This document shows positions 3,228 through 23,586 of a DNA stretch of 32,000 bases, in pieces. Made by a program: the position numbers and the translations under genes. The notes under the pieces are model-generated. The model did not search any database, was not told the DNA's origin, and worked only from the letters and a program-made list of their open reading frames with translations. Source of the DNA: Microcystis aeruginosa NIES-2549 (GTDB lineage Bacteria > Cyanobacteriota > Cyanobacteriia > Cyanobacteriales > Microcystaceae); contig NZ_CP011304.1 of assembly GCF_000981785.2 (NCBI RefSeq), positions 3,810,001-3,842,000 of the forward strand, given 5' to 3'. The first letter of the stretch is position 1. Every line of letters begins with the position of its first letter.

Positions 3228-3905
3228 CTACAGTGTAAGTTCGGAAGAACCATTATTTTTAGCTAGTTGACTAACAACCCATGCTCTTAAATTCTTTTCT
3301 GCCCTCACTTCATCCTCTTTAGCAGTGGCTAAAAATTCATAGAGTTTAGTTTTCGGAACTAGGGGAAAAGTAGGACTAAATTCTTCTTCCTGATAAACTC
3401 CCTTTTCTAACCGATAAATGCGCCAGATTTCTCCATTAAAACGCCATAATTCCGGCACTCCCAAACGGGCATAAAGTGCTAATTTATTAATATCCGTGTG
3501 GGTAATATCCACTTCCACCACTAAATCTGGGGGCGGATCTTCAGTTAAATTAATTGTTTTTCCTAGCACTTTGGCTTGATTTTGAATATAGTAAGCATTG
3601 TCGGGTTCTGCCCCTCGTTCTAAATCTTCCCTAGCTAGAGTTGTGGAACCCATACTTTTAATTTTTAAACCCAATTCTACCACCAAAATCCGAATAAATA
3701 ATCCGATTAATTCTCGATAAAACTCGTGTTCTTCTAGGGGCATAGTAATTTCTAAAGTGCCACGATCATAAAATAAATGGGCGCGATTATTTTCCCCTAG
3801 GGCTTGTAAAATTTGCCGATAGGATAACCAACTGAGATGATTAAAAACTACCCGTTTTTCGCCCCTAATTTGCTCAGTATTTAACTCCAGAGGAACTGTC
3901 ACCAT
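3228..3905 (-). CDS. Uma2 family (DUF820) PD-(D/E)XK endonuclease-like protein, tandem copy 1
   Basis: 225-aa ORF with typical Uma2 layout (LSWLSYRQIL, RAHLFYDRGTLEITMP, EPDNAYYI, PPDLVVEVDITHTD, LYARLGVPELWRF). GAGG sits 5 nt before the ATG. Confidence 0.85.
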   Translation of the reverse strand: MVTVPLELNTEQIRGEKRVVFNHLSWLSYRQILQALGENNRAHLFYDRGTLEITMPLEEHEFYRELIGLFIRILVVELGLKIKSMGSTTLAREDLERGAEPDNAYYIQNQAKVLGKTINLTEDPPPDLVVEVDITHTDINKLALYARLGVPELWRFNGEIWRIYRLEKGVYQEEEFSPTFPLVPKTKLYEFLATAKEDEVRAEKNLRAWVVSQLAKNNGSSELTL

Positions 3906-3912
3906 AATTACC

Positions 3913-4566
3913 TCAACTTTCAGCTAGTTGACTAACAACCCATGCTCTTAAATTCTTTTCTGCCCTCACTTCATCCTCTTTAGCAGTGGCTAAAAATTCA
4001 TAGAGTTTAGTTTTCGGAACTAGGGGAAAAGTAGGACTAAATTCTTCTTCCTGATAACCTTCCTTTTCTAACCGATAAATGCGCCAGATTTCTCCATTAA
4101 AACGCCATAATTCCGGCACTCCCAAACGGGCATAAAGTGCTAATTTATTAATATCCGTGTGGGTAATATCCACTTCCACCACTAAATCTGGGGGCGGATC
4201 TTCAGTTAAATTAATTGTTTTTCCTAGCACTTTGGCTTGATTTTGAATATAGTAAGCATTATCGGGTTCTGCCCCCCGTTCTAAATCTTCCCTAGCTAGA
4301 GTTGTGGAACCCATACTTTTAATTTTTAAACCCAATTCGGACACCAAAAAATAGATAAAACGTCCAATTAATTCTCGATAAAACTCGTGTTCTTCTAGGG
4401 GCATAGTAATTTCTAAAGTGCCACGATCATAAAATAAATGGGCGCGATTATTTTCCCCTAGGGCCTGTAAAATTTGCCGATAGGATAACCAACTGAGATG
4501 ATTAAAAACTACCCGTTTTTCGCCCCTAATTTGCTCAGTATTTAACTCCAGAGGAACTGTCACCAT
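3913..4566 (-). CDS. Uma2 family (DUF820) PD-(D/E)XK endonuclease-like protein, tandem copy 2
   Basis: 217-aa ORF near-identical to 3228-3905, offset by 661 bp. Differs in a 28-nt patch and in the C-terminal tail. Confidence 0.85.
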   Translation of the reverse strand: MVTVPLELNTEQIRGEKRVVFNHLSWLSYRQILQALGENNRAHLFYDRGTLEITMPLEEHEFYRELIGRFIYFLVSELGLKIKSMGSTTLAREDLERGAEPDNAYYIQNQAKVLGKTINLTEDPPPDLVVEVDITHTDINKLALYARLGVPELWRFNGEIWRIYRLEKEGYQEEEFSPTFPLVPKTKLYEFLATAKEDEVRAEKNLRAWVVSQLAES

Positions 4567-6697: not shown

Positions 6698-7027
6698 ATG
6701 CTGTTAAAATCCACGACCCGTCATATTCGCATTTATACGGCTGAAGTAAAAAATAATCAATTAATCGAGAGTAACAATGTCTTGACTCTTGATGTGGATC
6801 CCGATAATGAATTTAATTGGGAAGAAGTGGCTCTCAATAAGGTTTATAGTAAGTTTGATGAATTGGTAGAGTCCTACAATGGGGAAGAACTGAGCGAATA
6901 TAATCTCCGTCGCATCGGTTCAGATCTAGAACATTTTATCCGTTCTCTCCTGCAAAAAGGGGAAATTAGCTATAATCTCAATGCCAGAGTGCAGAACTAT
7001 AGTATGGGTTTACCGAAATTAGGGTGA
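6698..7027 (+). CDS. ndhM: NAD(P)H-quinone oxidoreductase (NDH-1) subunit M
   Basis: 109-aa ORF: MLLKSTTRHIRIY..., LTLDVDPDNEFNWEE and YNLRRIGSDLEHFIRSLLQKGEISYNLN match cyanobacterial NdhM. Confidence 0.93.
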   Translation: MLLKSTTRHIRIYTAEVKNNQLIESNNVLTLDVDPDNEFNWEEVALNKVYSKFDELVESYNGEELSEYNLRRIGSDLEHFIRSLLQKGEISYNLNARVQNYSMGLPKLG

Positions 7028-7819: not shown

Positions 7820-8665
7820 ATGAAAATTAATATTTTTCCCATCAGTCTGTTTTCTGGCATAAGTATAATTACACTGTGGGCTTTTCCCTCCCTTGCCGCT
7901 AGTTTATCCGTTGCCGAGCTATTTGTTAAGATAGAAAATTTTAACCGACCATCCCTAGGAGCTATTTCTAGGGGAAATAATCAAATAATTAATATTGCTG
8001 AGGATGGAATTAGTCAGACTATTTTGACAGGTTCCGCATTTTTCCAGTCAGATGCGCTGGAATCATTAGGACAAATTGAATTTACTAATCAAACTCTGGG
8101 TTTTGGGAGTAATTTTGTTGGTAGGGCTGATATTCAAGCTTCTCTAGGGAGTCTATTTTTTGTGCCAGCTAATCAAGCTTTAAGCTTCGATTTTAGCCTG
8201 TTCAGACAGCTATCTAATAGCCAAAGTGAATCGCAGTTAAATACAGTTAGTAGTGCCAGCAGATTTAACTTTTTTCTTGAGGAACAATCTCTCATAAACT
8301 CGGATAATAGTTCTGAAATTTTGCCTCGACAACTAGATATGTTAAACCAGATTAATAGCGGTTTATCGGCAAGTATTCCTGAGAATTATTCTAGGTTTTT
8401 GATCGGGAACAACATCACGATTAATAGTTATATGGAAAATATTATCTCTACGGATCAGCAGCAATTAGTGACCACATTATTAACGGGTTCTTTTCAGTGG
8501 ACAGCAATAAGAGATACTATGATTTTTTTGAGTGTCTCGGCTCAATCTTGCACCTATAGTTCTGATCAACCGCGCACTTGTGTGATTATCGCTGAACCCC
8601 GTTACCATGGCATAATTTTCTTCCTTATCATCCCTATTTTCCTCTTATTCCGAACGATAAAGTAA
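7820..8665 (+). CDS. secreted S/N/Q-rich hypothetical protein with PEP-CTERM-like C-terminal anchor
   Basis: 281-aa ORF. N-terminal signal peptide (MKINIFPISLFSGISIITLWAFPSLAAS). C-terminus IAEPRYHGIIFFLIIPIFLLFRTIK: an (A)EP motif, a hydrophobic helix and a basic tail. Confidence 0.6.
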   Translation: MKINIFPISLFSGISIITLWAFPSLAASLSVAELFVKIENFNRPSLGAISRGNNQIINIAEDGISQTILTGSAFFQSDALESLGQIEFTNQTLGFGSNFVGRADIQASLGSLFFVPANQALSFDFSLFRQLSNSQSESQLNTVSSASRFNFFLEEQSLINSDNSSEILPRQLDMLNQINSGLSASIPENYSRFLIGNNITINSYMENIISTDQQQLVTTLLTGSFQWTAIRDTMIFLSVSAQSCTYSSDQPRTCVIIAEPRYHGIIFFLIIPIFLLFRTIK

Positions 8666-9427
8666 ATAATTTAACTCATTGGTCAACCATTCAGAAAACA
8701 ATTTTTGTAAAATTTCCTGATGGATTTCCTCGGTTAATTCCGCAGGTAAAAATTCCAGCACCATTAGTAAATGATATTCTTCGTTAATTTTCACTGGTTG
8801 TATAATTTCTTTTGGTCGAGCTTGAAAAACGATACTGGAAAGACCAGAAGAGGATAACTGACCACGATAGATTATTCCTTCATAGCCACAATGTAAGCGA
8901 CGTTGTTCGTCTATATCGTAAAGATGGGCAGCTTGATAAAAGCTAATTTCTTCTTCTTCAATTTGATAAAAAACTTCCCAAGCTAATTTTTCGTAGGGAA
9001 TAACCAGACGATAAAGAATCGCTCGCTCAAAGTCCAGACGATTCTCGGCAAAATGTCGTTCTACCTCCCGGGAAAAAAGAGCCGTCGATAGTTTTTTTGT
9101 TAGTAAATCCCCTTGAATTCCCGCTTCCCAATCTTCGGGAGCGATCATCTGATCTGCTAACCAGGCCAAGGTATCACTGGCTTTTTCTAATCGTTTTTCC
9201 CGTCTTTGCTCGTCAGCGAGCGCTTGAATTTCTGCGGGTGTAACGCTAATATTATGCTCTTGGGCTGATTTCTTGATGATTCTTTGGTGCAGGATTTTTT
9301 GACAAATTTCCTTAAGCTGTAGCTGCTGTTTAAGAAACTTTTCTATGTCTATTAACTCGATCTTAATTCCATGAAAGTCAGGCATATTTAAAGATAGAAT
9401 CCGTTTAATTGTATGATCATAAATCAA
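8645..9427 (-). CDS. PpiC/SurA-like (parvulin-related) protein, putative peptide-maturation/chaperone component
   Basis: 260-aa ORF. SurA-N-like helical part (ITVTPAEIQALADEQRREKRL..., WLADQMIAPEDWEAGI) then a parvulin-like part (ILYRLVIPYEKLAWEVFYQIEEEEISFYQAAHLYD...GYEGIIYRGQL...EYHLLMVLEF). It is the last gene of the peptide locus. Confidence 0.55.
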   Translation of the reverse strand: MIYDHTIKRILSLNMPDFHGIKIELIDIEKFLKQQLQLKEICQKILHQRIIKKSAQEHNISVTPAEIQALADEQRREKRLEKASDTLAWLADQMIAPEDWEAGIQGDLLTKKLSTALFSREVERHFAENRLDFERAILYRLVIPYEKLAWEVFYQIEEEEISFYQAAHLYDIDEQRRLHCGYEGIIYRGQLSSSGLSSIVFQARPKEIIQPVKINEEYHLLMVLEFLPAELTEEIHQEILQKLFSEWLTNELNYLLYRSE

Positions 9428-9478
9428 CTAAATTGACATACTAATTTATATTTATTTATGACCAGATACTTAGCAGCT

Positions 9479-9509
9479 AAAACTCTATCAACTAATTTGA
9501 TAGAGTTTT
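9479..9509. terminator. hairpin between last precursor gene and PpiC-like gene
   Basis: AAAACTCTATCA-ACTAATT-TGATAGAGTTTT: a 12-bp perfect stem with A/T-rich flanks, ~100 nt downstream of the stop at 9608. Confidence 0.5.
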
Positions 9510-9607
9510 AGTCACTCAAGGAAAATCTGAGGAATAATTTTTGTGAACTACCCTAGCTTATACTCAGAAATAATTAAGAGTCTAGGTGTAATTTTGAGTA
9601 GTTATCC

Positions 9608-9820
9608 TCAACTATTGGTAGTAATAGGCTGACCAATGGCAATACCAAAAGCCGTAATGAATCCCTGAGAAAAACTACCAATACGATTGTGACTGAAATC
9701 AAAGACAAATAAAGGTTGAAAACTTAGATCATTTAAAACCCATCCCTGCCCCTGAATACTCCCAAGATAAAGGGATTCAGTTTGGCAAAATTCCAAATCC
9801 CGAATTTTGATTTGACTCAT
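9608..9820 (-). CDS. leader-bearing small peptide precursor, paralog 5 of 5
   Basis: 70 aa. AAGGAG SD 7 nt before the ATG. N-terminus MSQIKIRDLEFCQTESLYLGS shares the I.DLE..E leader with its neighbours. Core is Gly/Ser/Phe-rich with no Cys. Confidence 0.7.
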   Translation of the reverse strand: MSQIKIRDLEFCQTESLYLGSIQGQGWVLNDLSFQPLFVFDFSHNRIGSFSQGFITAFGIAIGQPITTNS

Positions 9821-9840
9821 TATTATTCTCCTTGATTATT

Positions 9841-10086
9841 TTAGACAGGACTCATCGCATAGACATAACCAGCCTGAATAACATTCAGATAGGCGTAGTC
9901 ACTAGCTATTACACTTCCTGAAAATACCATTGATAAAGTACTGGGAGTTGAAGAAGCCTTAACTACTCCACTCAAATTAATCCAAGGGTTATGAACAATA
10001 AATCCCTGACCTCCAACAGGTGAACAGTTAGGAATTTTTTGATTTTGAGCCATTAATTCTAGATGCTCTAAATCGGTAATGATCAT
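9841..10086 (-). CDS. leader-bearing small peptide precursor, paralog 4 of 5
   Basis: 81 aa. MIITDLEHLELMAQNQKIPNCSPVGG then QGFIVHNPW.... GAGGA SD. 45 nt downstream of paralog 3. Confidence 0.7.
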   Translation of the reverse strand: MIITDLEHLELMAQNQKIPNCSPVGGQGFIVHNPWINLSGVVKASSTPSTLSMVFSGSVIASDYAYLNVIQAGYVYAMSPV

Positions 10087-10131
10087 AGTTTGTTCCTCGC
10101 AGTTTTGAACTTAATTAAGCCGGAATAGCTC

Positions 10132-10368
10132 CTATCCTATAGCCACCGCTTGATAAATAAAGGAGAAACCTGTAGTATAACCCTGGGGGGTAGCCGTAGT
10201 TAAAACTTGAGTTTCTCCACCGGCAATGCTGCCAAGGGAACCAACAACTAATGAATTAAATTTGAAATTAGCAATTGAAAAAGAGGGGATAACTACTATA
10301 CCTGAAGCTCCCTTTACTTCATAGGCTTGTTCGGTCATTTCCAAGTGTTCTAGATCGTTAATCAACAT
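10132..10368 (-). CDS. leader-bearing small peptide precursor, paralog 3 of 5
   Basis: 78 aa. MLINDLEHLEMTEQAYEVKGA then SGIVVIPSFS.... AAGGAGAAAAATT-ATG. Confidence 0.75.
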   Translation of the reverse strand: MLINDLEHLEMTEQAYEVKGASGIVVIPSFSIANFKFNSLVVGSLGSIAGGETQVLTTATPQGYTTGFSFIYQAVAIG

Positions 10369-10432
10369 AATTTTTCTCCTTGTTTAATGTTGTAACTGTT
10401 CCACAATAATAACGATTAATTATTAGTAGCGG

Positions 10433-10447
10433 TTGCCATTGTGGCAA
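10433..10447. promoter_or_regulatory. TTGCCA-N3-TGGCAA palindrome (candidate operator / -35 overlap), copy 1
   Basis: TTGCCATTGTGGCAA is a perfect inverted repeat, 65-79 nt upstream of the ATG at 10368. On the minus strand TTGCCA is followed after ~16 nt by TAATAA (a possible -10). Confidence 0.45.
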
Positions 10448-10748
10448 TTATTTTTTATATCGAGAATGATTGCTATTTTTATTTAGATCAACCTCTAATC
10501 CGTACAGAGGGAGTATTTATTACAGCTTTTATCATAAAGATAAAGTACAAAAGAATTTGGCCTTATCTCTGAGCAACTGGCTACTGTTAAATGTTCCGCA
10601 GTTCCAGCGTTCCCAAAAACTAGAGACTTCGTACCTTACCATTGGGATAAATGCTGTAATATACTCCTCTAATAAAAAAATCCTAACGAGTCTTGCTAAC
10701 CCGTCGTGAAATCAATCCTATGGTCGATATGTCAGGGATTCTAGTTAG

Positions 10749-11018
10749 CTACCCCCCCGGAGTAGTTGCCACGGCCGAAATTGAACTTGTGCTAAGGGCA
10801 AAACCAGGACCGGCCTCAACGGAGTTAGAAACATCGATACTCGCCGTTAGGGAACCGATAGCCGAAGAATTAATCCGACTTTGTACAAGACTGAAAATTA
10901 TGTCGTTAATTGACATATAGGCAACCTGATCTAAGTCGAAATCATCAAAATTTTGACCCCCGACAATTCCCTGCTTTCCGGTAGTCAGTTCAGAGAATTC
11001 TAAATTAATAATTACCAT
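10749..11018 (-). CDS. leader-bearing small peptide precursor, paralog 2 of 5
   Basis: 89 aa. MVIINLEFSELTTGKQGIVGG then QNFDDFDLD.... GGAG SD 10 nt upstream. Confidence 0.65.
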   Translation of the reverse strand: MVIINLEFSELTTGKQGIVGGQNFDDFDLDQVAYMSINDIIFSLVQSRINSSAIGSLTASIDVSNSVEAGPGFALSTSSISAVATTPGG

Positions 11019-11131
11019 TACTTTTCTGCTCCAAAGTAAACACGGATCAATAGTTATAAGCTACTGTTAAATAACCTCGATAATAATTCAGTAGCTTTCT
11101 GGATTTAACTGGTTCACAAGACATGGAAAAT

Positions 11132-11165
11132 AGGCTAGGTAGAAATTTGATTATCTACCTAGCCT
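11132..11165 (-). terminator. 12-bp-stem hairpin after precursor paralog 1
   Basis: AGGCTAGGTAGA-N10-TCTACCTAGCCT. On the minus strand it is followed by ATTTTCC. It lies 67 nt past the stop at 11232. Confidence 0.55.
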
Positions 11166-11231
11166 TAATGATCAAGTCAAAATTATCTTTTAGATTTGAT
11201 AACTTTGCGCAAGGCTAAACACAAGATTCGG

Positions 11232-11444
11232 TTAAACTAAACCTCTTGCCCGGGTGACGCTAGTGTATTCAATGGATTTAGAACCAGTTTCTGCGCTGAG
11301 ATCCAGAGTTTCTCGGCTAAAACCCCGAGCCAAAGCTTCACCAGAAATATCTAGACTTTTGCGGGAATAGAAAAAAGCACCGTTGCCTCCTTCGATATTT
11401 TTTTCAGAAACATTTTCGAGGTAGCTGATGTCGGAAATTAACAT
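11232..11444 (-). CDS. leader-bearing small peptide precursor, paralog 1 of 5
   Basis: 70 aa. MLISDISYLENVSEKNIEGG then NGAFFYSRKS.... AAGGAGAAAAACC-ATG. Confidence 0.75.
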   Translation of the reverse strand: MLISDISYLENVSEKNIEGGNGAFFYSRKSLDISGEALARGFSRETLDLSAETGSKSIEYTSVTRARGLV

Positions 11445-11532
11445 GGTTTTTCTCCTTGTTGTTTGAGTTGTTTGACTAGAAAACTTGTTTGTTTTCTATA
11501 TTTATATATTAGGATGTTGTTCATATACTTGG

Positions 11533-11547
11533 TTGCCAATCTGGCAT
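11533..11547. promoter_or_regulatory. TTGCCA-N3-TGGCA(t) palindrome, copy 2
   Basis: TTGCCAATCTGGCAT, preceded by GG as in copy 1. It lies 89-103 nt upstream of the ATG at 11444. Confidence 0.4.
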
Positions 11548-11671
11548 ATTTATTTCCTTGCTATATAAATTGGCAAAACTCATATATTTTGAAAAATATC
11601 CTCTGATTGGGCAAGATCGATTCATCTCTAAAATTGCTCAATCATGGAGTCAGTTGAAATTTATGACAACA

Positions 11672-11697
11672 AAGGTAGATAAAATCTTATCTACCTT
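11672..11697 (-). terminator. 10-bp-stem hairpin after HetP-like gene
   Basis: AAGGTAGATA-AAATCT-TATCTACCTT, 35 nt past the stop at 11732. It shares the AGGTAGA...TCTACCT core with the 11132-11165 hairpin. Confidence 0.5.
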
Positions 11698-11731
11698 GAC
11701 TATCCTCTCGAATTACTGGAATCATCGGCAC

Positions 11732-12070
11732 TTAAAACCAAGGAAGTTCCCGAAAACCGCCCTTGAGATTAGCCACTTCTGACTCAATTACTTTTACATG
11801 ATTCAAATCTCGGATGGCGAGGGAATTTATTTCCTCGGTTTTTGACGGCCCTTTGCGGGCGTTATCTTTAATCAATCGGTTATAGGTTCGATAGGGTATG
11901 TAATGGAGGGGATTGTAACCAGCGAAACGCAAAATTAACAGACAGGCCCAAGAATACTTGCCATTAAGAATCGCATCGACAATTTGGTCAAACTGTTCTT
12001 CTGTCATTGCTTTATCTCGTTTATTATTGGAATTACTGGGTAATTGAATCATTTTCCTCGTTTCTCCCAT
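11732..12070 (-). CDS. HetP-family protein with a C-terminal double-glycine-leader-like tail
   Basis: 112-aa ORF. EEQFDQIVDAILNGKYSWACLLILRFAGYNPLHYIPYRTYNRLIKDN matches the conserved HetP core as I remember it. GAGG SD favours the second ATG at 12052 (MIQLPS...). C-terminus is AIRDLNHVKVIESEVANLKGG-FRELPWF. Confidence 0.75.
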   Translation of the reverse strand: MGETRKMIQLPSNSNNKRDKAMTEEQFDQIVDAILNGKYSWACLLILRFAGYNPLHYIPYRTYNRLIKDNARKGPSKTEEINSLAIRDLNHVKVIESEVANLKGGFRELPWF

Positions 12071-12082
12071 TAAAAGTTGATA

Positions 12083-13744
12083 TTAAAGTGTCAGCCCATC
12101 CTGTTGTAGCTTTTTGAGCGGTTCTAATAAGACATCGATGATGCGACGACGACGGATAATAATCTCCGCCGTCCCGGTTTGTCCGGGTTTGAACGCCAGC
12201 GCTCCCTGACCGGGACGAGGGGAATCGCGATCGAGCAGAATCTCCACTTGATAGATCTCGCCTAAATCTTGATCGGTTCTGGTAGCGGTGGAAATCTTGC
12301 CAACTTTACCCCCAATCACGCCGTAATCTTGGTAAGGAAAAGCATCGATTTTCACCTGGGCCGTTAGTCCTGATTTGATAAATCCCGCTTCCCGATTGGG
12401 CAACTCGGCTAAGAGTACCAAAGGAACTCCTTCGGGGGCTACCTCGGCCAAGGTTTGACCGGCTTGCACCACCTCCCCTGATTTTTTCAGGTTGAGAGTC
12501 AAGATCACGCCATCGACTGGTGCTGTTAGATATTTTTGACGGAGTTGCTCCTGGGCTTTGGCCAAGAGGGTCTTATTTTCTCGTATACGAGCATCGATCT
12601 GGGCTATTTCTAGCTCGAGCGACGCTTTTTGTTTATTGGTCTCCAACTGCACCGCTTGCGCTTCTGCTCGCTTGCGACGCAATTCTGCCTGTAGTTGGGC
12701 GACTTCTTGGTAAGTTTTGGCTAATTCCCCTTGATTTTGGGTGATACGACTCTCTAGGTCGAGTAGGGATTGGGAGGCTTGGAAAATCTGCTCTTCGGCG
12801 TTATTGATTTCCTGTAATTGACTGATAGTAATCTTCTGTTCTGTCTCCCGCAGGTTTTGTTCGGCTTGAAAGAGCATCTCCAGGGAAATCGCCCCGTCGG
12901 CGGCTAAGGGTTTTAAACGAGCCACCCGCTCCTGATGGGCTTTCTTCTCCTCCTCTAGTTGGGCCGAGCGCCGGCTGGCTTCCCCGGAAAGGGGGTTTAG
13001 TTGCTGACGACGACTGCGATAGGCACTAGCTTGGGTTTTCTGTTCCCGCAATAATTGACGGATAGTGTCTAGTTTGCTTTCGGCAAGAGCGATCGCTGAT
13101 AATTGGGCTTTTTCCTCGGCTTCTGCGATCGCTTTTTGGGTGTCCTCCTGCAAATTTAGCCGCTCCCACAGGCCTCGTTTCTGAGTCTGTTCGATGTAGT
13201 TAGCGTTCAGGCTTTGTTGTAGGCGTTCTACTTCTTTTTGGGCAATTGTGGTGTCAATCTCGGCGATAATTTGTCCTTTTTTTACTTTATCCCCTTCTTT
13301 GACCTCTACACGGCTGATTTGACCCAATTCGAGGGGTTGAATTTTATAGGTTTCTCCCTGGGGAATTAATTTTCCCGTCGCCTTGCCCACTTCTTCGATC
13401 TGTCCGAACCATGCCCAGGTTCCGAAAATGACACAGAATCCCATTCCTGCCATCAATAGGCGTGTGGGTAGGGTGGCGGGGGGCTGATCGAGTAGGGTTT
13501 GTACGGGAGTTGACCAGGTGGTGGCGGAATGACCCGGAATCGGGGCGGCTACGGTGCTGAGAGGGGCGACTGCCCCACCACAAATCTGCTCCGCTTTTGC
13601 GGGAGAAATGGTGATTTCCCTCTCTTTGTCAGTTTCTTGTCCGACTTGGTTCGATTCAGGTAAATTGTTCATGGTATCTGCTGATAAGAGTGAGAGAGAC
13701 CCAGCAAAAACGGTCGCTGGCAAGTTGCTCTTAACTTTTGCCAA
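12083..13744 (-). CDS. HlyD-family membrane fusion / periplasmic adaptor protein
   Basis: 553-aa ORF (TTG at 13744; alternative ATG at 13672). One TM helix (LLMAGMGFCVIFGTWAWFG), a lipoyl-like motif (VKEGDKVKKGQIIAEID), a long coiled coil, and a beta-barrel tail (GLTAQVKIDAFPYQDYG). Confidence 0.9.
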   Translation of the reverse strand: MAKVKSNLPATVFAGSLSLLSADTMNNLPESNQVGQETDKEREITISPAKAEQICGGAVAPLSTVAAPIPGHSATTWSTPVQTLLDQPPATLPTRLLMAGMGFCVIFGTWAWFGQIEEVGKATGKLIPQGETYKIQPLELGQISRVEVKEGDKVKKGQIIAEIDTTIAQKEVERLQQSLNANYIEQTQKRGLWERLNLQEDTQKAIAEAEEKAQLSAIALAESKLDTIRQLLREQKTQASAYRSRRQQLNPLSGEASRRSAQLEEEKKAHQERVARLKPLAADGAISLEMLFQAEQNLRETEQKITISQLQEINNAEEQIFQASQSLLDLESRITQNQGELAKTYQEVAQLQAELRRKRAEAQAVQLETNKQKASLELEIAQIDARIRENKTLLAKAQEQLRQKYLTAPVDGVILTLNLKKSGEVVQAGQTLAEVAPEGVPLVLLAELPNREAGFIKSGLTAQVKIDAFPYQDYGVIGGKVGKISTATRTDQDLGEIYQVEILLDRDSPRPGQGALAFKPGQTGTAEIIIRRRRIIDVLLEPLKKLQQDGLTL

Positions 13745-14090
13745 GATAATTAATCTAGGGGAAAAAGAAACAATCTGGTGTTTCTTTAGGGATGTCTGTT
13801 GATCAAATCGCTTTCTTTTTACTGATCGAAGAATTTTAAGCGAACAATAAACAAGAACCAGTTAAGAATTATTTTTTGATCTATCTTGAAATCTCTAGCT
13901 TTCCCGATCCCCCATTTATGTATACTGGATGTAGTAAATGATAGATGGATATGGTGATTCTATCTTGGCTATTAAGTTATGCTCCACAAATAGATTATGT
14001 TCATGTTACCAGTTTTGTCAAGTATCAAAATAGTTAGTTATACACGAGTTAAATCTTAGCTATATTGTGGCTTATTCTAGAGAATTGCAG

Positions 14091-14105
14091 TTGCCAGAAT
14101 GGCAA
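14091..14105. promoter_or_regulatory. TTGCCA-N3-TGGCAA palindrome, copy 3
   Basis: TTGCCAGAATGGCAA is a perfect inverted repeat in the 895-bp spacer, ~350 nt upstream of the hlyD start. Confidence 0.4.
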
Positions 14106-14639
14106 TATAACTGTTAATTTTTCTGAAGCTTCACTTGGCAATAAAATGCAAAATTTCGATAATATCGGTGTTTTTAGACGAAAATTTTCGATTTTAACCT
14201 TAAAAATTGACCATAATCAAATAGTTTTATTTGAAAGAATGAGCAAATTCAGCTATATTTTCGTGGCTTGCCGAAAGTCTAACATCTGTCTCTAGGTCGA
14301 TATTTTTATCTATCAAATCATCGATGAAGAACAAATCAAAATATGTATACTCTGGCATTTACTGGTGGTGAAAAATACCGCTCAAGGGATTAAAAATATA
14401 TAAAATAGCCTCCCTTGGTTTAGTCTGGTTAAATGTAACCTAGAAAAACTTTTCTGTCATAACTGCACAGAAAAATTAAGAATACACCAGAGAGGTCCAA
14501 AGAACAGAGAGAGGAAGAGAAATTCGATGAGTAATACTGAATCCTTTCGAAAAGAACTATAAAAATGGAGAGTGGGGAGATGAGGGAGATAGGGCGTTAA
14601 GTTGGCATAGGATAGTACGATCTGGGCAGAAGGTGGTCG

Positions 14640-17600
14640 CTATAAATCCAATTGTTGGTGGGCGAGGTAATAGTACAACCCTTTTAAAGCCATTAAATCT
14701 TCATGGGTTCCCCGTTCCACCAAAAGACCTCGATCGAGAACCAGAATAGAATCGGCGTTGCGGACGGTAGAAAGACGATGGGCAATGATCAGGGTAGTGC
14801 GATCACGGGATAGACGAGCCAGATTGTCTTGAAAACGACGTTCCGATTCGGTATCGAGGGAACTGGTCGCCTCATCGAGGAGTAAAATTTTCGGATTACC
14901 TAACAGGGCCCTAGCGATGGCGATTCTTTGTCTCTGGCCGCCCGATAAATTCATCCCCCTTTCCCCCACCTTTGTATTGTAGCCGAGGGGGAGATTTTGA
15001 ATAAAAGCGTGAGCTTCGGCCAGTTTAGCCGCCTCTATCACCTCCTCTAAACTATATTCATGGCGATAAAGCCTGATATTGTCTAGAATCGTTCCCGAAA
15101 ACAGAAAACACTCCTGGGGAACAACTCCCATCTGGGCCCGCAAAGAAGTGGGCGAAACCTGAGTCAGATCATGTCCATCGATCCGAATAGTACCGCTATC
15201 GGGGTGATAGAGACTCTCTACCAGCTTGAATAGGGTACTTTTGCCCGAACCGCTGCGGCCGACCACCGCCACCGTCTCGCCTGGATTCACCGAGAAAGAA
15301 ATATTTTCCAAAACATTGCTCTCATCGCTGCTGTGGTAGCGGAAACTGACGGAATCGAAACAGATTTCACCGCGTAACCCCGGCAAAGTCAGCAGCGGGC
15401 GATCGCTAGTTTCTTCGGGGGTAGCGGAAAAAACATCGTCGAGACGTTCGATCGAGATTGTCACTTCCTGTAATTCATCCCAAAGATTGACCAGGCCCAA
15501 CACCGGACTGAGTACTTTACCGATCAACATATTAAAAGCGACGAACTGGCCGATGGTCAGTTGATTTTCAATCACCAGAGTGGCCCCGTACCAGAGTAAA
15601 GCGGTACTGCCAAGGGAGTGGATCGTGCCGCTGGCCGCCTGTAGATTAATTCCTAACTTTTGCCCCCGAAAACGGGCATTTAAAAAACCCGTCAGGTGTT
15701 CCTCCCAACGCCAGCGCAGTTCTCCCTCAGCGCCGAGGGATTTGACCGTGGCGATCCCGGATATGGTCTCGACGAGGGAAGAATTTTGTTGGGCTGCCTC
15801 GTTAAAGACCTCCCGGGATACCTGACGCAGGAAAGGGGTAGCAAATATAGTCAGCAAAGCGATGGGTGGGATTAAAGCGATAACCAGTAGGGTTAACTGC
15901 CAATTGTAGAAAAACATTAAACCCAGATAGACGAATCCCATCAAAAAATCTAGCCAAGCTAGGATGACCTGACTGACTAAAAAACGCTGGATTTTTTCAT
16001 TTTCGTTGACCCGGGTGATGATATCGCCCACATGACGGGATTCAAAGAATTTTAGGGGTAATTTGAGGGCGTGGCCGATAAAACCGCTAATCATTGTCAA
16101 GTCGAGACGGTTGGAGAGATAACTCAACCAATACTGGCGAATTGCCACCAGTCCCACACTCCAGAGTCCAAAAAGTAACACCCCGAGGGCAAAGACGTTA
16201 AGGGTGGAAAGGCTTCGATTGACCACCACTTTATCAAGGATAATCTGGGTAAATAGGGGCGTGATCAGGCCAAATAATTGAATTAACAAGGAAATCAGAA
16301 TTATCTGTAAGCCTAGGCCCCGGTAGGGGGACAAAAGCTGGAAAAAACGCTTAAAAGAGGGTTTATCGGTGGCGATTGTTCCTAAAATTGCCGTCGGTTC
16401 TAGCAAGAGAGCGTAACCCGTCCATCCCTGTAAAAATTGCTGACGGGAATAATAACGCTTACCTTGGGCGGGATCGGCCACTAATAGGCGATCGCCGCTG
16501 ACTGGATAGACGACAACAAAATGATCCCCCTGCCAGTGCGCTATCCAGGGATTTTTCTGTTCAAGAAGACGATTTAAACTGGCACGCACCGGTCGAGACT
16601 GATAACCGAGGGTTTCCGCCGTTTTTGCCAAATTTTTCAGGGATACGCCCGATCGCCCCACTCCCGCCAATTCCCTCAAGCTATTCAAACTCAAGCGTTT
16701 TCCCCAGTAAAGGCTAATCATTGCCAGACAGGTGGCCCCGCAATCGGCGGCACTTTGTTGTTCTAGCCAAGGATATTTCTGCCCGAAACGGAACCGCCGT
16801 TTTAAGGGTTTGGGAAAATCAACGGGCTGATTTTGGCTGGTAGGAGGACGCAGGGGGATAACATTGGACTTAGGGGCGGGATTAACTAGAATTTCAGCCC
16901 TTTTTTCCCGATTAATATCTTTTTTTTCAGCGGTTTCGGCAGGCAGATAGTATAAAACTACGTCGGTCGCCGTCACCCTGGCCGGAGGCGAGGAGGTGGT
17001 ATTATCCCAACTGTCACCGATGCTCATCCCCTCGATCTGTCCTTGCCGCAACCAATAGCGTCCTTTGGGAAGATGATCGAGAGTTTCCTGGGCCTGGAGC
17101 GATTTTTCCTGTAAATAGGGCAGAAAACTGCTAATTTTTGCACTAGATTCTGATTGGCAATCCGTTAGGGTTTTGAAAAAAATTAAGGTTTGGGTGTGTT
17201 TTATTTTCGAGTGCCACGCTTGTTGTAATTCGGGCAACGATTCTAAGAATTGCAGCAGCATCGGACGGGAAAGACGGGCTACAGTTACCTGACTGGCGGC
17301 AATCGGCGAGTAGAGAAGACTATCTTTAATAAATAGCGAATCTGCTCCGAAAACATCCCCTACTGTCAAGATTCCCCCAGATAGCCAACGTTTGTTACCT
17401 TGACCCAGTAATCGAACCCTTCCCTGACAGATCAAGTAAAAATCCTCGTTATTTTCCCTCCCCCCTCTCGCTTCGGGATCGCTATTGATACTATCTCCCA
17501 ATGAGAAATTAATCACTTGAAAAGACTCGCTCAAGGATTCTAGCAATTCGTTTTTATCTGGGGCAATTTTAGCCTGTTGTTGCAGTAAAGCTTTGATTTG

Positions 17601-17660
17601 AGAAGACTTTAAGGAAGTATCTTCCTTCTCGTTCCCCTGGGTCGTTAAGGGTTTTTTCAT
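14640..17660 (-). CDS. HetC-like ABC exporter: cNMP-binding-like N-terminus + C39 peptidase + ABC TMD + ATPase
   Basis: 1006-aa ORF. Cyclic-nucleotide-binding-like region (FYLICQGRVRLLGQG...GDVFGADSLF). C39 triad context (QQSAADCGATCL, GDHFVVVY, VADPA). Six-helix TMD. Walker A GRSGSGKST, signature LSGGQRQR, Walker B ILLLDEATS. Confidence 0.92.
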   Translation of the reverse strand: MKKPLTTQGNEKEDTSLKSSQIKALLQQQAKIAPDKNELLESLSESFQVINFSLGDSINSDPEARGGRENNEDFYLICQGRVRLLGQGNKRWLSGGILTVGDVFGADSLFIKDSLLYSPIAASQVTVARLSRPMLLQFLESLPELQQAWHSKIKHTQTLIFFKTLTDCQSESSAKISSFLPYLQEKSLQAQETLDHLPKGRYWLRQGQIEGMSIGDSWDNTTSSPPARVTATDVVLYYLPAETAEKKDINREKRAEILVNPAPKSNVIPLRPPTSQNQPVDFPKPLKRRFRFGQKYPWLEQQSAADCGATCLAMISLYWGKRLSLNSLRELAGVGRSGVSLKNLAKTAETLGYQSRPVRASLNRLLEQKNPWIAHWQGDHFVVVYPVSGDRLLVADPAQGKRYYSRQQFLQGWTGYALLLEPTAILGTIATDKPSFKRFFQLLSPYRGLGLQIILISLLIQLFGLITPLFTQIILDKVVVNRSLSTLNVFALGVLLFGLWSVGLVAIRQYWLSYLSNRLDLTMISGFIGHALKLPLKFFESRHVGDIITRVNENEKIQRFLVSQVILAWLDFLMGFVYLGLMFFYNWQLTLLVIALIPPIALLTIFATPFLRQVSREVFNEAAQQNSSLVETISGIATVKSLGAEGELRWRWEEHLTGFLNARFRGQKLGINLQAASGTIHSLGSTALLWYGATLVIENQLTIGQFVAFNMLIGKVLSPVLGLVNLWDELQEVTISIERLDDVFSATPEETSDRPLLTLPGLRGEICFDSVSFRYHSSDESNVLENISFSVNPGETVAVVGRSGSGKSTLFKLVESLYHPDSGTIRIDGHDLTQVSPTSLRAQMGVVPQECFLFSGTILDNIRLYRHEYSLEEVIEAAKLAEAHAFIQNLPLGYNTKVGERGMNLSGGQRQRIAIARALLGNPKILLLDEATSSLDTESERRFQDNLARLSRDRTTLIIAHRLSTVRNADSILVLDRGLLVERGTHEDLMALKGLYYYLAHQQLDL

Positions 17661-21729: not shown

Positions 21730-22185
21730 ATGACTGTTATTCCCGACTTAAAAACTCTCTACGAGATTGATGATTCTCTCTGGTTAGAAGAAACTATCGA
21801 ACTCTTGAAAGCGAAAAAATTTGACGCTTTAGATTTAGACAATTTAATCGAGGAGTTAGAAGACTTGGGAAACGAAAAAAGGTTTCGTGTTGCTAGTTTT
21901 TTACAGCAAATTATTAGACATTGTTTATTATTACAGTTTTGGACAAGGGAAAGAGAATATAATCAGGCTCATTGGCAAGCAGAGATAATAAGTTTTCAAT
22001 ATCAGTTAAAGCGCTATTTAACCACAAATCTTCGCAAATATCTAGAACAGGAATTTGAGCAAATTTACTTTGAGTCCCTGCAATACGTTCGTAAAAAAAC
22101 TGATAATAAAGTCAACTTTCCTGATATTTGTCCCTACAGTTTAGAAGAACTTCTCGATCCTAATTGGCTACCACCTTACGAATAA
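21730..22185 (+). CDS. DUF29 family protein, array copy 1
   Basis: 151 aa. LYEIDDSLWLEETIELLKAKKFDALDLDNLIEELEDLGNEK...RH.LLLQFW....HW..EI pattern of DUF29. GGGGAGA SD. Confidence 0.8.
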   Translation: MTVIPDLKTLYEIDDSLWLEETIELLKAKKFDALDLDNLIEELEDLGNEKRFRVASFLQQIIRHCLLLQFWTREREYNQAHWQAEIISFQYQLKRYLTTNLRKYLEQEFEQIYFESLQYVRKKTDNKVNFPDICPYSLEELLDPNWLPPYE

Positions 22186-22196
22186 AGGAGATGATA

Positions 22197-22652
22197 ATGA
22201 CTGTTATTCCTGACTTAAAAATTCTCTACGAAATTGATGATTCCCTCTGGTTAGCAGAAACTATAGAACTGCTCAAGGCTAAAAAATTTGACGATTTAGA
22301 CTTAGACAATTTAATCGAGGAGTTAGAAGACTTGGGAAACGAAAAAAAGTTTCGTGTTGCTAGTTTTTTACAGCAAATTATTCGTCATGCTTTGTTACTG
22401 CAATTTTGGACAAGGGAAAGAGAATATAATCAAAGTCATTGGGAATCAGAACTGGTAAATTTTCAAGATCAATTAAATACCTACCTAACGGCAAGTTTAC
22501 GGAAATATTTAGAACAAGAATTTGATAATATTTATCAGAAGGCACTCCGTTATGTGAGAAAAAAGACCAACAATCAAGTCATTTTTCCCGATACTTGTCC
22601 CTACAGTTTAGAAGAACTTCTCGATCCTAATTGGCTGCCACCTTACGAATAA
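22197..22652 (+). CDS. DUF29 family protein, array copy 2
   Basis: Start chosen at ATGACTGTT (MTVIPDLK), 6 nt after AAGGAG, by homology to copy 1. The track's upstream extension MATTLRIKEMI overlaps the end of the previous gene. Confidence 0.8.
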   Translation: MTVIPDLKILYEIDDSLWLAETIELLKAKKFDDLDLDNLIEELEDLGNEKKFRVASFLQQIIRHALLLQFWTREREYNQSHWESELVNFQDQLNTYLTASLRKYLEQEFDNIYQKALRYVRKKTNNQVIFPDTCPYSLEELLDPNWLPPYE

Positions 22653-22663
22653 AGGAGATGATA

Positions 22664-23119
22664 ATGACTGTTATTCCCGACTTAAAAACTATCTACGAGA
22701 TTGATGATTCCCTCTGGTTAGCAGAAACTATAGAACTGCTCAAGGCTAAAAAATTTGACGCTTTAGACTTAGAAAACTTAATCGGGGAGTTAGAAGACTT
22801 GGGAAACGAAAAAAAGTTTCGTGTTGCTAGTTTATTAGAGCAAATTATTAGACATTTTTTACTCCTACAGTTTTGGACAAAGGAAAGAGCATATAATCAG
22901 GATCACTGGGAGTTAGAAATAGTCAACTTTCAAATTCAGCTAAAAAGAGGCTTAACCACCAATCTCCGTAATTATTTACAAAATGAATTAACCAACATTT
23001 ATGAAGATGCAGTTTTCTTTGTGCGGAAAAAGACAAAGAATAAAGTTATTTTCCCTGATACTTGTCCCTACAGTTTAGAAGAACTTCTCGATCCTAATTG
23101 GCTGCCACCTTACGAATAA
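22664..23119 (+). CDS. DUF29 family protein, array copy 3
   Basis: Same junction TAAAGGAGATGATAATGACTGTT; 151 aa. Confidence 0.8.
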   Translation: MTVIPDLKTIYEIDDSLWLAETIELLKAKKFDALDLENLIGELEDLGNEKKFRVASLLEQIIRHFLLLQFWTKERAYNQDHWELEIVNFQIQLKRGLTTNLRNYLQNELTNIYEDAVFFVRKKTKNKVIFPDTCPYSLEELLDPNWLPPYE

Positions 23120-23130
23120 AGGAGATGATA

Positions 23131-23586
23131 ATGACTGTTATTCCCGACTTAAAAACTATCTACGAGATTGATGATTCTCTCTGGTTGGAAGAAACCATCG
23201 AACTTTTGAAAGCAAAAAAATTTGACGCTTTAGATTTAGAGAATTTAATCGAGGAGTTAGAAGATTTGGGAAACGAGAAGAAGTTTCGTGTTGCCAGTTT
23301 TTTACAGCAAATTATCAGACATTGTTTATTATTACAATTTTGGCCAAGGGAAAGAGAATATAATCAAGGTCATTGGAAAGCAGAGATCGTGAGTTTTAAA
23401 GATCAACTAAAACGTTATTTAACCACGAATCTTCGTAAATATCTGGAGCAAGAATTTGATAATATCTATGAAGATGCAGTGCGATACGTTCGTCAAAAAA
23501 CCGATAATAAAGTCAACTTTCCTGATATTTGTCCCTACAGTTTAGAAGAACTTCTCGATCCTAATTGGCTACCACCTTACGAATAA
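23131..23586 (+). CDS. DUF29 family protein, array copy 4
   Basis: Same junction; 151 aa. Confidence 0.8.
   Translation: MTVIPDLKTIYEIDDSLWLEETIELLKAKKFDALDLENLIEELEDLGNEKKFRVASFLQQIIRHCLLLQFWPREREYNQGHWKAEIVSFKDQLKRYLTTNLRKYLEQEFDNIYEDAVRYVRQKTDNKVNFPDICPYSLEELLDPNWLPPYE

Follow-up and report, generated by a model that had tools for sequence, protein, structure and literature searches.

The DNA considered here, called the window below, is a stretch of 32,000 nucleotides from Microcystis aeruginosa NIES-2549 (contig NZ_CP011304.1, positions 3,810,001 to 3,842,000), and the subject is a gene cassette in it that is predicted to process and export small peptides. The map of open reading frames (ORFs) gives a series on the minus strand in the order ABC exporter, gap, HlyD, HetP-like gene, five small ORFs and parvulin-like gene (locus tags MYAER_3845 to 3851 in M. 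aeruginosa NIES-2549). These are the nine genes of the original prediction, which was made from the sequence alone, and all nine lie where it had placed them. A tenth gene of the cassette, the convergent plus-strand ORF 7820-8665, is syntenic in related loci and had been overlooked. The observation of the locus is confirmed and its anatomy extended; what is shown here covers the genes and their domains, the catalytic residues, and the conservation, selection and synteny of the locus. The features of the cassette are listed here, with the ratios of nonsynonymous to synonymous substitution (dN/dS) of the small genes.

14640..17660, minus strand: peptidase-containing ABC transporter (PCAT) of the long HetC type, 1006 amino acids, with cyclic nucleotide monophosphate (cNMP)-binding-fold, C39, transmembrane and nucleotide-binding domains (Pfam/NCBIfam)
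17241..17453, minus strand: cNMP-binding-fold domain of the exporter, residues 70-140, PF00027 30.9 bits against a cutoff of 27.5, without the residues that contact cyclic nucleotides
16392..16778, minus strand: C39 double-glycine peptidase domain of the exporter, residues 295-423, PF03412 130 bits, Cys/His/Asp intact
13745..14639, minus strand: spacer between the ABC and HlyD genes, with the best sigma-70-like match of the region
12083..13744, minus strand: HlyD-family membrane fusion protein, TIGR01843 244 bits against a cutoff of 208.65
11732..12070, minus strand: HetP-family protein, NF037966 122 bits against a cutoff of 45; from the called ATG at 12052, 106 amino acids
11735..11818, minus strand: leader-like motif AIRDLNHVKVIESEVANLKGG at the C-terminus of the HetP-like protein, with FRELPWF behind it as a tail of 7 residues; matched by the leader model of the small peptides
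11232..11444, minus strand: predicted precursor 1, 70 amino acids, leader MLISDISYLENVSEKNIEGG, 50-residue core, dN/dS 0.42-0.51, orthologues in loci L003, L027 and L028
10749..11018, minus strand: predicted precursor 2, 89 amino acids, leader MVIINLEFSELTTGKQGIVGG, 68-residue core, dN/dS 0.13-0.46
10132..10368, minus strand: predicted precursor 3, 78 amino acids, leader ending in KGA, 57-residue core, dN/dS 0.17-0.22
9841..10086, minus strand: predicted precursor 4, 81 amino acids, 26-residue leader ending in VGG, 55-residue core
9608..9820, minus strand: predicted precursor 5, 70 amino acids, subtype MSQIKIRDLEFCQTE...IQGQG, cleavage position uncertain, dN/dS 0.23-0.24
9479..9509, minus strand: perfect palindrome in the gap from precursor 5 to the parvulin gene, stem of 15 bp (folded window 9477-9511)
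8645..9385, minus strand (8645-9427 with a TTG start): parvulin-type foldase/chaperone, 246 amino acids, PF00639 (Rotamase) 23.9 bits against a cutoff of 21.7
7820..8665, plus strand: orf281, a predicted secreted protein of 281 amino acids with a PEP-CTERM-like C-terminus, convergent with the parvulin gene, the 3' ends overlapping by 21 bp

The ATG starts used by the gene callers in other Microcystis assemblies lie at 13672 for HlyD, 12052 for the HetP-like gene and 9385 for the parvulin gene, giving products of 529, 106 and 246 amino acids. The spacer behind the exporter gene was first given as 895 bp, which is right for the TTG start of HlyD, but from the called ATG start it is 967 bp. The hetP-like gene begins 12 bp past the HlyD stop codon. 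Exact-sequence look-ups gave no match for the TTG-start parvulin ORF or for the ABC protein; the ATG-start proteins and homologues were matched. NCBI labels all five peptides 'hypothetical protein' and names a protein identical to the HetP-like one 'HetP family heterocyst commitment protein'. The same five small genes are called in other Microcystis assemblies. A 43-amino-acid ORF in the spacer (14227-14358) was rejected as a gene, being without a leader and uncalled in those assemblies.

No modification, protease or immunity gene was recognised in the 7-18.5 kb part of the window with the ORF map and the Pfam and NCBIfam profiles, so the absence of such genes from the locus, as first described, holds. 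The profile searches of the window gave no match for LanM, LanB, YcaO or radical-SAM, and no Rfam family was found in it. The locus has no gene for an outer-membrane channel and an unlinked TolC-type protein is therefore assumed.

The transmembrane and nucleotide-binding parts of the exporter match PF00664 (ABC_membrane, 165 bits) and PF00005 (ABC_tran, 131 bits), and residues 290-1006 align over their full length with HlyB, PCAT1 and ComA. The catalytic Cys, His and Asp of the C39 domain, found in DCG, HFVVV and ADP, are conserved in the alignment with the peptidase domain of PCAT1 (76 bits). The translation contains a Walker A motif, GRSGSGKST, a signature motif, LSGGQRQR, and a Walker B motif, ILLLDEAT. 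Profiles, PCAT1 alignment and translation agree with the original prediction of an exporter with a cNMP-like N-terminus, an intact C39 peptidase and complete ATPase motifs, and with both the domains and the leader-bearing ORFs present the architecture is that of a double-glycine peptide secretion system. Searches with family hidden Markov models (HMMs) from Pfam and NCBIfam, a check proposed together with that prediction, confirmed the C39 ABC, HlyD, HetP and Rotamase domains. The N-terminal cNMP fold and the adjacent hetP-family gene place the exporter among the 'long' HetC-type PCATs.

Synteny across cyanobacteria, a second check proposed at that stage, was followed in a sample comprising the best 80 loci from species-representative genomes. 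In 60 loci 6 kb or more of upstream sequence is available, and 43 of these have HlyD and HetP genes upstream of the parvulin gene and on its strand. An ABC gene was found in 39 loci, upstream on the same strand in 34 and downstream on the opposite strand in 5. At least one leader-bearing ORF lies between HetP and parvulin in 60 of the 80 loci, the number per locus ranging from 1 to 8.

The five small ORFs have a common leader that begins at residue 1 of each, M-[IL]-I-x-D-L-x-[YH]-L-E, followed by 8-14 residues and then by G-[GAS]. Precursor 5 is of a distinct subtype, M-S-Q-x-x-I-x-D-L-x-F-C-[EQ]-[TN]...I-x-G-x, which also supplies the last peptide gene ahead of the parvulin gene in L003, L006, L010, L016, L025 and L027; the taxa with this subtype in last position include Pleurocapsa, Crocosphaera, Kastovskya and Cyanothece. 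An HMM of the leader, built from the small peptides only, matched, at E < 0.01, 153 segments of ORFs in the 80 related loci. The matches are concentrated in one place: 141 of them lie upstream of parvulin and on its strand, and 137 are no more than 5 kb from it, while the 5-kb same-strand stretch upstream of parvulin makes up 13% of the sequence searched. With thresholds as loose as E <= 10, no family model in NCBIfam or Pfam matched orf281 or the five peptides. A profile made from the latter gave only 14 matches at E <= 0.001 among 1.84 billion representatives, a number from which the size of the family cannot be estimated because the leader is too short for a library-wide profile search.

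The reading frames are kept in three metagenomic relatives, L091, L092 and L094, in which the parvulin protein is 88, 87 and 79% identical to that of the window. All five small genes are found in L092 and L094, and the last three plus a cut-off ORF in the shorter contig L091. In pairwise comparisons with these relatives dN/dS is 0.13-0.51 for the peptides, at a dS of about 1, and 0.13-0.19 for HlyD, HetP and parvulin. Precursors 1, 3, 4 and 5 have orthologues, in unchanged order, in other genera, in L003 (Pleurocapsa) and in L027 and L028 (Cyanothece BG0011 / SU3 group), with 44-52% identity in the core of precursor 3; L006 (Synechococcales) has a match to precursor 3 and a last gene of the precursor 5 type. 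All five small ORFs are real genes. This agrees with the original prediction, and the proposed check of their conservation in related genomes found them retained in the metagenomic relatives, with dN/dS below 1, and precursors 1, 3, 4 and 5 across genera as well.

The predicted cores are 49-68 residues long, and all five are without Cys and rich in Ser, Ala, Thr and Gly. Among 148 cores of related loci Cys makes up 0.1% and Ser, Ala, Thr and Gly together 45%; these cores have little charge and many aromatic residues. The virtual absence of Cys excludes lanthionine, thiazole and disulfide chemistry, and with no enzyme gene recognised in the window linear unmodified peptides are favoured as products.

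The HetP-like protein has the same leader near its C-terminus. The arrangement I[KR]DLxYLE...[KR]GG followed by a short tail was found in 35 of the 49 HetP proteins of related cassettes, the other 14 being without the motif. Among the 120 nearest HetP homologues 99 have it, with tails of 1-47 residues; 24 of these proteins have the first Trp of the tail at +5 and 9 have it at +6. One Cylindrospermum locus resembles hetC-hetP, with an ABC gene, no HlyD and then HetP, and there the HetP protein is the only one downstream of the ABC gene with the motif. The motif is also present in alr2818, the genuine HetP, as IKDLAYLEVVGKQ... (Wang, Fewer and Sivonen 2011, PMC3140520). Because the leader is the same, the HetP-like protein is probably bound or cut by the C39 domain. 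It is reasonable to regard HetP as a candidate ligand or substrate of the neighbouring peptidase, although the motif is internal and absent in some HetP proteins. In the Cylindrospermum locus L072 (4866-9164, minus strand) a second, short-type C39 ABC/HlyD system lies between hetP and parvulin, with a classical double-glycine (GG) leader precursor, ...EIISGG.

The parvulin-type protein was named as the only candidate accessory gene in the original prediction, and the PF00639 match and a PrsA/SurA-like fold are in agreement with this. Its AlphaFold model (mean predicted local distance difference test score, pLDDT, 88.8) has a helical chaperone module around the parvulin domain and matches PrsA, SurA and PEB4 (Foldseek E = 1e-9 to 1e-7), and Pin1 and Par10 as well. 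As in PrsA, SurA and PEB4, N- and C-terminal parts of the helical module flank the parvulin domain. Unlike these proteins it has neither signal peptide nor lipobox, and its dual-His motif has lost the first His, for which the family consensus has Gln and the window protein Arg; the Asp is conserved and so is the second His. The N-terminus is not hydrophobic and the protein is therefore presumably cytoplasmic. It also differs from PrsA, SurA and PEB4 in belonging to a family of its own that is so far only cyanobacterial. The family search gave 838 homologues at E <= 0.001, with organism names that are all cyanobacterial among the 120 matches listed, and identity between genera is 52-63%. The suggestion that such cassettes belong to a 'putative peptide maturation system' family did not hold, since the protein scores 60.8 bits with TIGR04500 against a cutoff of 180, over profile positions 115-328 of 340; membership was rejected and the protein is a distant relative only.

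In filamentous taxa (L011, L013, L023, L026, L029, L032, L038, L044, L080 and others) an extra same-strand gene of 170-900 amino acids lies between the leader peptides and parvulin. Its product is Ser/Thr-rich with a conserved C-terminus, ...DATLIR..ILAVVLGTVD..G.TTL..DF., and the gene is absent from the window.

The convergent gene, orf281, encodes a protein with a signal-like N-terminal segment and a tail that reads ...AEPRYHGIIFFLIIPIFLLFRTIK in translation. In the window the C-terminus consists of AEP, then a hydrophobic segment, then RTIK. In close relatives PEP stands in place of AEP, and homologues of other genera have VPEPS, a hydrophobic stretch and basic residues, which is a sorting signal of the PEP-CTERM type. 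A convergent member of 250-340 amino acids was found in 45 of the 71 loci with downstream sequence, at a distance of at most 500 bp in 28 and with overlapping 3' ends in 8. The Crocosphaera/Cyanothece group has the PEP-CTERM-like gene between the parvulin and ABC genes. A word-indexed search gave 11 close relatives only, and the wider family was obtained by BLAST in the fetched loci. The structure model has low confidence (pLDDT 45).

Clustering of the ORFs of at least 120 amino acids in the 80 loci gave two frequent families outside the cassette, the PEP-CTERM-like/Ser-Thr-rich proteins (56 loci) and a protein of about 700 amino acids (16 loci). In the first of these, single linkage had merged the PEP-CTERM family with a second Ser/Thr-rich family, and the two were told apart by their position, length and C-terminus. 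Smaller, unannotated clusters recurred in 12, 10 and fewer loci. The protein of about 700 amino acids, found in L027, L031 and 14 other loci, looks like a tetratricopeptide repeat protein when the sequence is inspected by eye.

Candidate regulatory elements lie in the spacer and within the series of small genes. The spacer has a promoter-like site, TTGACA-16-CATAAT, on the minus strand from 14021 to 13994, identified by an 11/12 consensus match only, and the stretch 14130-13975 is 73% identical to the sequence upstream of HlyD in the relative L092. This site may be a promoter for a unit from HlyD to parvulin. The palindrome between precursor 5 and the parvulin gene folds as RNA with -25.9 kcal/mol (z = -5.4) and occurs once in the window. 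In L091, L092 and L094 its sequence has hardly changed although the flanks have diverged, and it was not found in loci more distant than these. Stem-loops behind structural genes are a common means of setting the transcript ratio of precursor and machinery; the conservation at sequence level would also fit an operator. A terminator-like hairpin after precursor 2 (10685-10705, minus strand) and a promoter-like TTGCCA-17-AATAAT ahead of precursor 3 (10419-10447, minus strand), both of which are consensus matches only, hint that precursors 3-5 form a separate transcription unit.

The original prediction took the N-terminal domain of the exporter to imply gating by a second messenger. The best PDB match of this domain is Cmr. 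Alignment with protein kinase A RI-beta (FGEIALLLNRPRAAT in the exporter, FGADSLFIKDSLLYS in the kinase subunit) shows that the Glu of the phosphate-binding cassette is replaced by Ala and the Arg by Leu, so that both phosphate-contacting residues of a canonical cyclic-nucleotide-binding domain are missing. The homologous N-terminal domain of HetC bound ppGpp (guanosine tetraphosphate) in vitro with a dissociation constant (KD) of 59 uM and was stabilised by GTP, while binding of cyclic AMP (cAMP), 2-oxoglutarate or cyclic di-GMP was not seen (Rachedi et al. 2024, PMC10986499). A cyclic-nucleotide gate is thus not implied, and gating by cAMP or cGMP was rejected on these residues and binding data. 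A nucleotide or alarmone gate is possible.

Among Microcystis strains the cassette was found in NIES-2549, NIES-3787, NIES-3806, NIES-3807, NIES-2521 and PCC 9806, and also as GenBank AOC54585-54592. The region downstream of ndhM (window 6698-7027, L095-L104) has at least four gene contexts in ten complete genomes. It is a rearrangement breakpoint, with the cassette there in some strains only.

Cassettes of this type were catalogued in a survey of 58 genomes, in which clusters with a long-type CAP_ED-C39 ABC protein, HlyD and rotamase/SurA form groups I, II and VI, HetP-like genes are skewed to group II and a motif KIxDLxYLEx10GG is described (Wang, Fewer and Sivonen 2011, PMC3140520). The window cassette has the long-type ABC protein, HlyD and SurA/rotamase of group I. 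It shares with groups I and II the CAP_ED-C39-ABC architecture, HlyD, 'SurA' and the motif, and with group II the adjacent HetP-like gene and the presence of several GG precursors. It differs from group II in that no extra modification or peptidase gene, such as M16, is present in 7-18.5 kb of the window. Because these enzyme genes are absent, the cassette is described as having the core of group I together with precursors and a HetP gene like those of group II. In the 2011 paper the motif is ascribed to HetP proteins, and the small ORFs are not taken to be a family with a common leader; the PEP-CTERM-like partner was not noted, and the NIES-2549 cassette lies outside its 58 genomes. The original view of the cassette as uncharacterised stands for the product but not for the cassette type, which has been known since 2011; the NIES-2549 locus is a further member, of uncharacterised function.

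Another close system is the HetC-HetP pair of Anabaena/Nostoc PCC 7120 (PMC10986499, PMC4133259). In both cases an exporter with cNMP fold, C39 and ABC domains is followed by a hetP-family gene, the catalytic residues of the C39 domain are intact and HetP has a leader-like motif. The window differs in having HlyD and five precursors between exporter and parvulin, whereas neither a membrane fusion protein nor a GG-leader gene has been reported at hetC. Microcystis is unicellular and has no heterocysts, and the likeness is one of domain architecture and neighbouring gene. PCAT1 of Clostridium thermocellum and ComA of Streptococcus, two PCATs of solved structure, share with the window exporter the C39-transmembrane-nucleotide-binding architecture, the full-length alignment and the catalytic residues. 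The window exporter differs from them in its extra N-terminal region of 290 residues with the cNMP fold, in its Gram-negative setting with a HlyD partner and in the different spacing of the hydrophobic positions of its leader.

A further comparison is with Synechococcus elongatus PCC 7942, where the GG-leader proteins EbfG1-4 are exported via PteB and enable biofilm formation, EbfG1-3 forming amyloid (PMC4997328, PMC9981879). As in the window, several co-transcribed small GG-leader proteins adjoin a C39 ABC exporter and HlyD. The EbfG products are secreted, unmodified by enzymes of the cluster, and have roles in the matrix or at the surface rather than in killing. The differences are that PteB is of the short type without a cNMP domain, with its best Anabaena homologues of the Alr5147 type, group III, and that the EbfG/PteB cluster has no HetP or parvulin gene and involves the peptidase EbfE. 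Subunits of the tubular pilus of Microcystis (CT pilus, MrpC) were rejected as an identity for the peptides, since that pilin has a signal peptide and belongs to another cluster, one that includes an O-GlcNAc transferase as well as a methyltransferase (PMC12397347).

Taken as a whole, the locus is best explained as a HetC-type peptidase-containing exporter cassette, an account that we consider somewhat better than even in all its parts together. The five small genes would give precursors with a family-specific N-terminal leader, the cytoplasmic C39 domain would bind this leader and cut after the double glycine, and the ABC/HlyD pair would export the cores of 49-68 residues with an unlinked TolC-like channel. 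This export mechanism, with cleavage and export predicted from domains, leader and synteny, is highly probable. The cores would remain unmodified by enzymes of the locus. The cytoplasmic PrsA/SurA-like parvulin most likely holds aggregation-prone precursors in an export-competent state, and the HetP-like protein probably is bound or cut by the C39 domain in addition to the small peptides. The cNMP-fold domain would act as a regulatory module with a ligand other than a cyclic nucleotide, the best guess by analogy with HetC being ppGpp or GTP.

For the exported peptides a role as surface or matrix components, like EbfG1-4, would be more likely than one as toxins. This part of the account is put forward tentatively, at rather less than an even chance, since it relies on analogy. 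It is preferred to a classical bacteriocin because no immunity gene was recognised, because the peptides have kept orthologues in other genera and are under purifying selection, and because a PEP-CTERM-like surface protein is linked. That the orthologues are kept in order across genera is unlike fast-diversifying toxins, and EbfG1-4, the only functional precedent in cyanobacteria, points in the same direction.

Several points weigh against the account of exported surface peptides. Cleavage, export, the chaperone role, the ligand and the function of the product are all deduced from sequence and likeness. The aligned cleavage site of precursor 5 reads GQ instead of G-[GAS], which makes the exact cut in this peptide uncertain. 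The isomerase activity of the parvulin protein is uncertain because the first His of the dual-His motif is replaced. The orf281 protein of the window has AEP in place of PEP and matched none of the PEP-CTERM models of NCBIfam and Pfam. EbfG/PteB is an analogy and not an orthologue, since PteB is of the short type, and the two systems were likened by description. The cores contain GxxxG-like motifs (GSLGSIAGG, FGIAIG), which occur also in membrane-active two-peptide bacteriocins. In ten complete Microcystis genomes with an identical NdhM, other genes adjoin ndhM and the cassette is not there, and Microcystis is absent among the best 80 loci of species-representative genomes. The cassette is therefore regarded as accessory within Microcystis, being patchy beside ndhM and in the species representatives, though those genomes may have it at another site; such a distribution is as compatible with an accessory trait for competition as with one of the surface.

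The alternative that survives best is a multi-peptide unmodified bacteriocin, of class II or microcin-like, in which the five cores would be membrane-active toxins against competing cyanobacteria and immunity would be encoded elsewhere or conferred by the exporter. The components expected of it, a PCAT, HlyD and GG-leader peptides, are all present, the cores are hydrophobic and Gly-rich besides having the GxxxG-like motifs, and the patchiness among strains would suit it. Clusters of this kind were filed as bacteriocin clusters in 2011 (PMC3140520), and the peptides evolve faster than the machinery, with 52-65% against 80-88% amino acid identity. Such toxins are nevertheless unlikely. Neither the window nor those related loci that were inspected showed an immunity-like small membrane ORF, although no search aimed at short ORFs was made, and dN/dS is below 1 for all five peptides. 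Their orthologues keep the same order across genera, and the cassette occurs in most sampled cyanobacterial lineages, where a regulator-like HetP gene and the PEP-CTERM-like surface protein accompany it. Antimicrobial activity of this cluster type is not reported in the literature surveyed.

A second alternative is a signalling system, a unicellular counterpart of HetC/HetP in which the HetP-like protein, the peptides or both would be processed into short extracellular or periplasmic signals such as the heptapeptide FRELPWF, while a changed state of the cytoplasmic HetP domain would couple export to a cell-fate or physiological decision. The original prediction had gone further and read the hetC/hetP pairing in a unicellular genome as an ancestral peptide-signalling role; the pairing does occur, but this role is only one possibility among several. 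The HetP-like protein does end in the leader motif, GG and a short tail, the motif recurs in most of the nearest homologues and in alr2818, and the Cylindrospermum HetP is the sole motif protein downstream of its ABC gene, with no HlyD between. In Anabaena, HetC and HetP co-localise at the heterocyst poles and overexpression of hetP bypasses a HetC peptidase mutant (Corrales-Guerrero et al. 2014, PMC4133259), while the substrate of HetC is still unknown and no GG-leader gene near hetC has been reported (Rachedi et al. 2024, PMC10986499). Against this, a C-terminal HetP-GFP fusion is functional (PMC4133259). The motif in HetP is internal and not N-terminal, it is missing from 14 of the 49 cassette HetP proteins, its cleavage is predicted from the motif only, and a signal made from HetP alone leaves five conserved cores of 50-70 residues unexplained. 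A further point against it is that we know of no PCAT that exports cargo as short as the HetP tail. A signalling role is judged a little less probable again than the bacteriocin.

A peptide made by ribosomes and modified after translation (RiPP), with modifying enzymes encoded elsewhere and the parvulin-like protein as maturation or recognition factor, is very improbable, since the weak match to TIGR04500 (60.8 bits) and the Ser/Thr-rich cores that speak for it stand against a score far below the cutoff of 180, the virtual absence of Cys from the cores and the lack of any recognised modification enzyme in the window or of anything enzyme-like among the large ORF clusters of the 80 loci.

Two other groups of genes were noted in the window outside the cassette. 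Four tandem DUF29 genes (PF01724) of 151-162 amino acids lie at 21730-23586 on the plus strand, with successive overlaps of 22 bp as listed ORFs. On the minus strand, 1481-2908 and 3228-4566 hold a protein with TIR and FGE-sulfatase domains and two Uma2-family genes according to the annotation of an identical region (locus L081); the copy number of the TIR gene differs between strains.

The exporter cassette, with five leader peptides and a parvulin, is conserved across cyanobacteria and strain-variable in Microcystis, the main freshwater bloom former, in which surface products affect buoyancy, competition and the forming of colonies. Exact masses by which exported peptides could be found follow from the predicted cores. 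The most valuable lead is the leader shared by the small peptides and HetP, as it bears on what HetC cleaves and on why hetC and hetP are linked. One proposal, which we hold to be doubtful, makes HetP-family proteins the cis-encoded clients of HetC-type exporters: the segment I[KR]DLxYLE...[KR]GG near their C-terminus would be a true double-glycine leader, recognised by the C39 domain next to it, and cleavage would free or alter the cytoplasmic HetP domain and release for export a short C-terminal peptide with Trp, FRELPWF in Microcystis. If this is true, the long-sought substrate of HetC would be identified. The unicellular cassette would then keep the ancestral arrangement of exporter, fusion protein, HetP and true peptide substrates, and the hetC-hetP commitment pair would be derived from it by loss of the other substrates.

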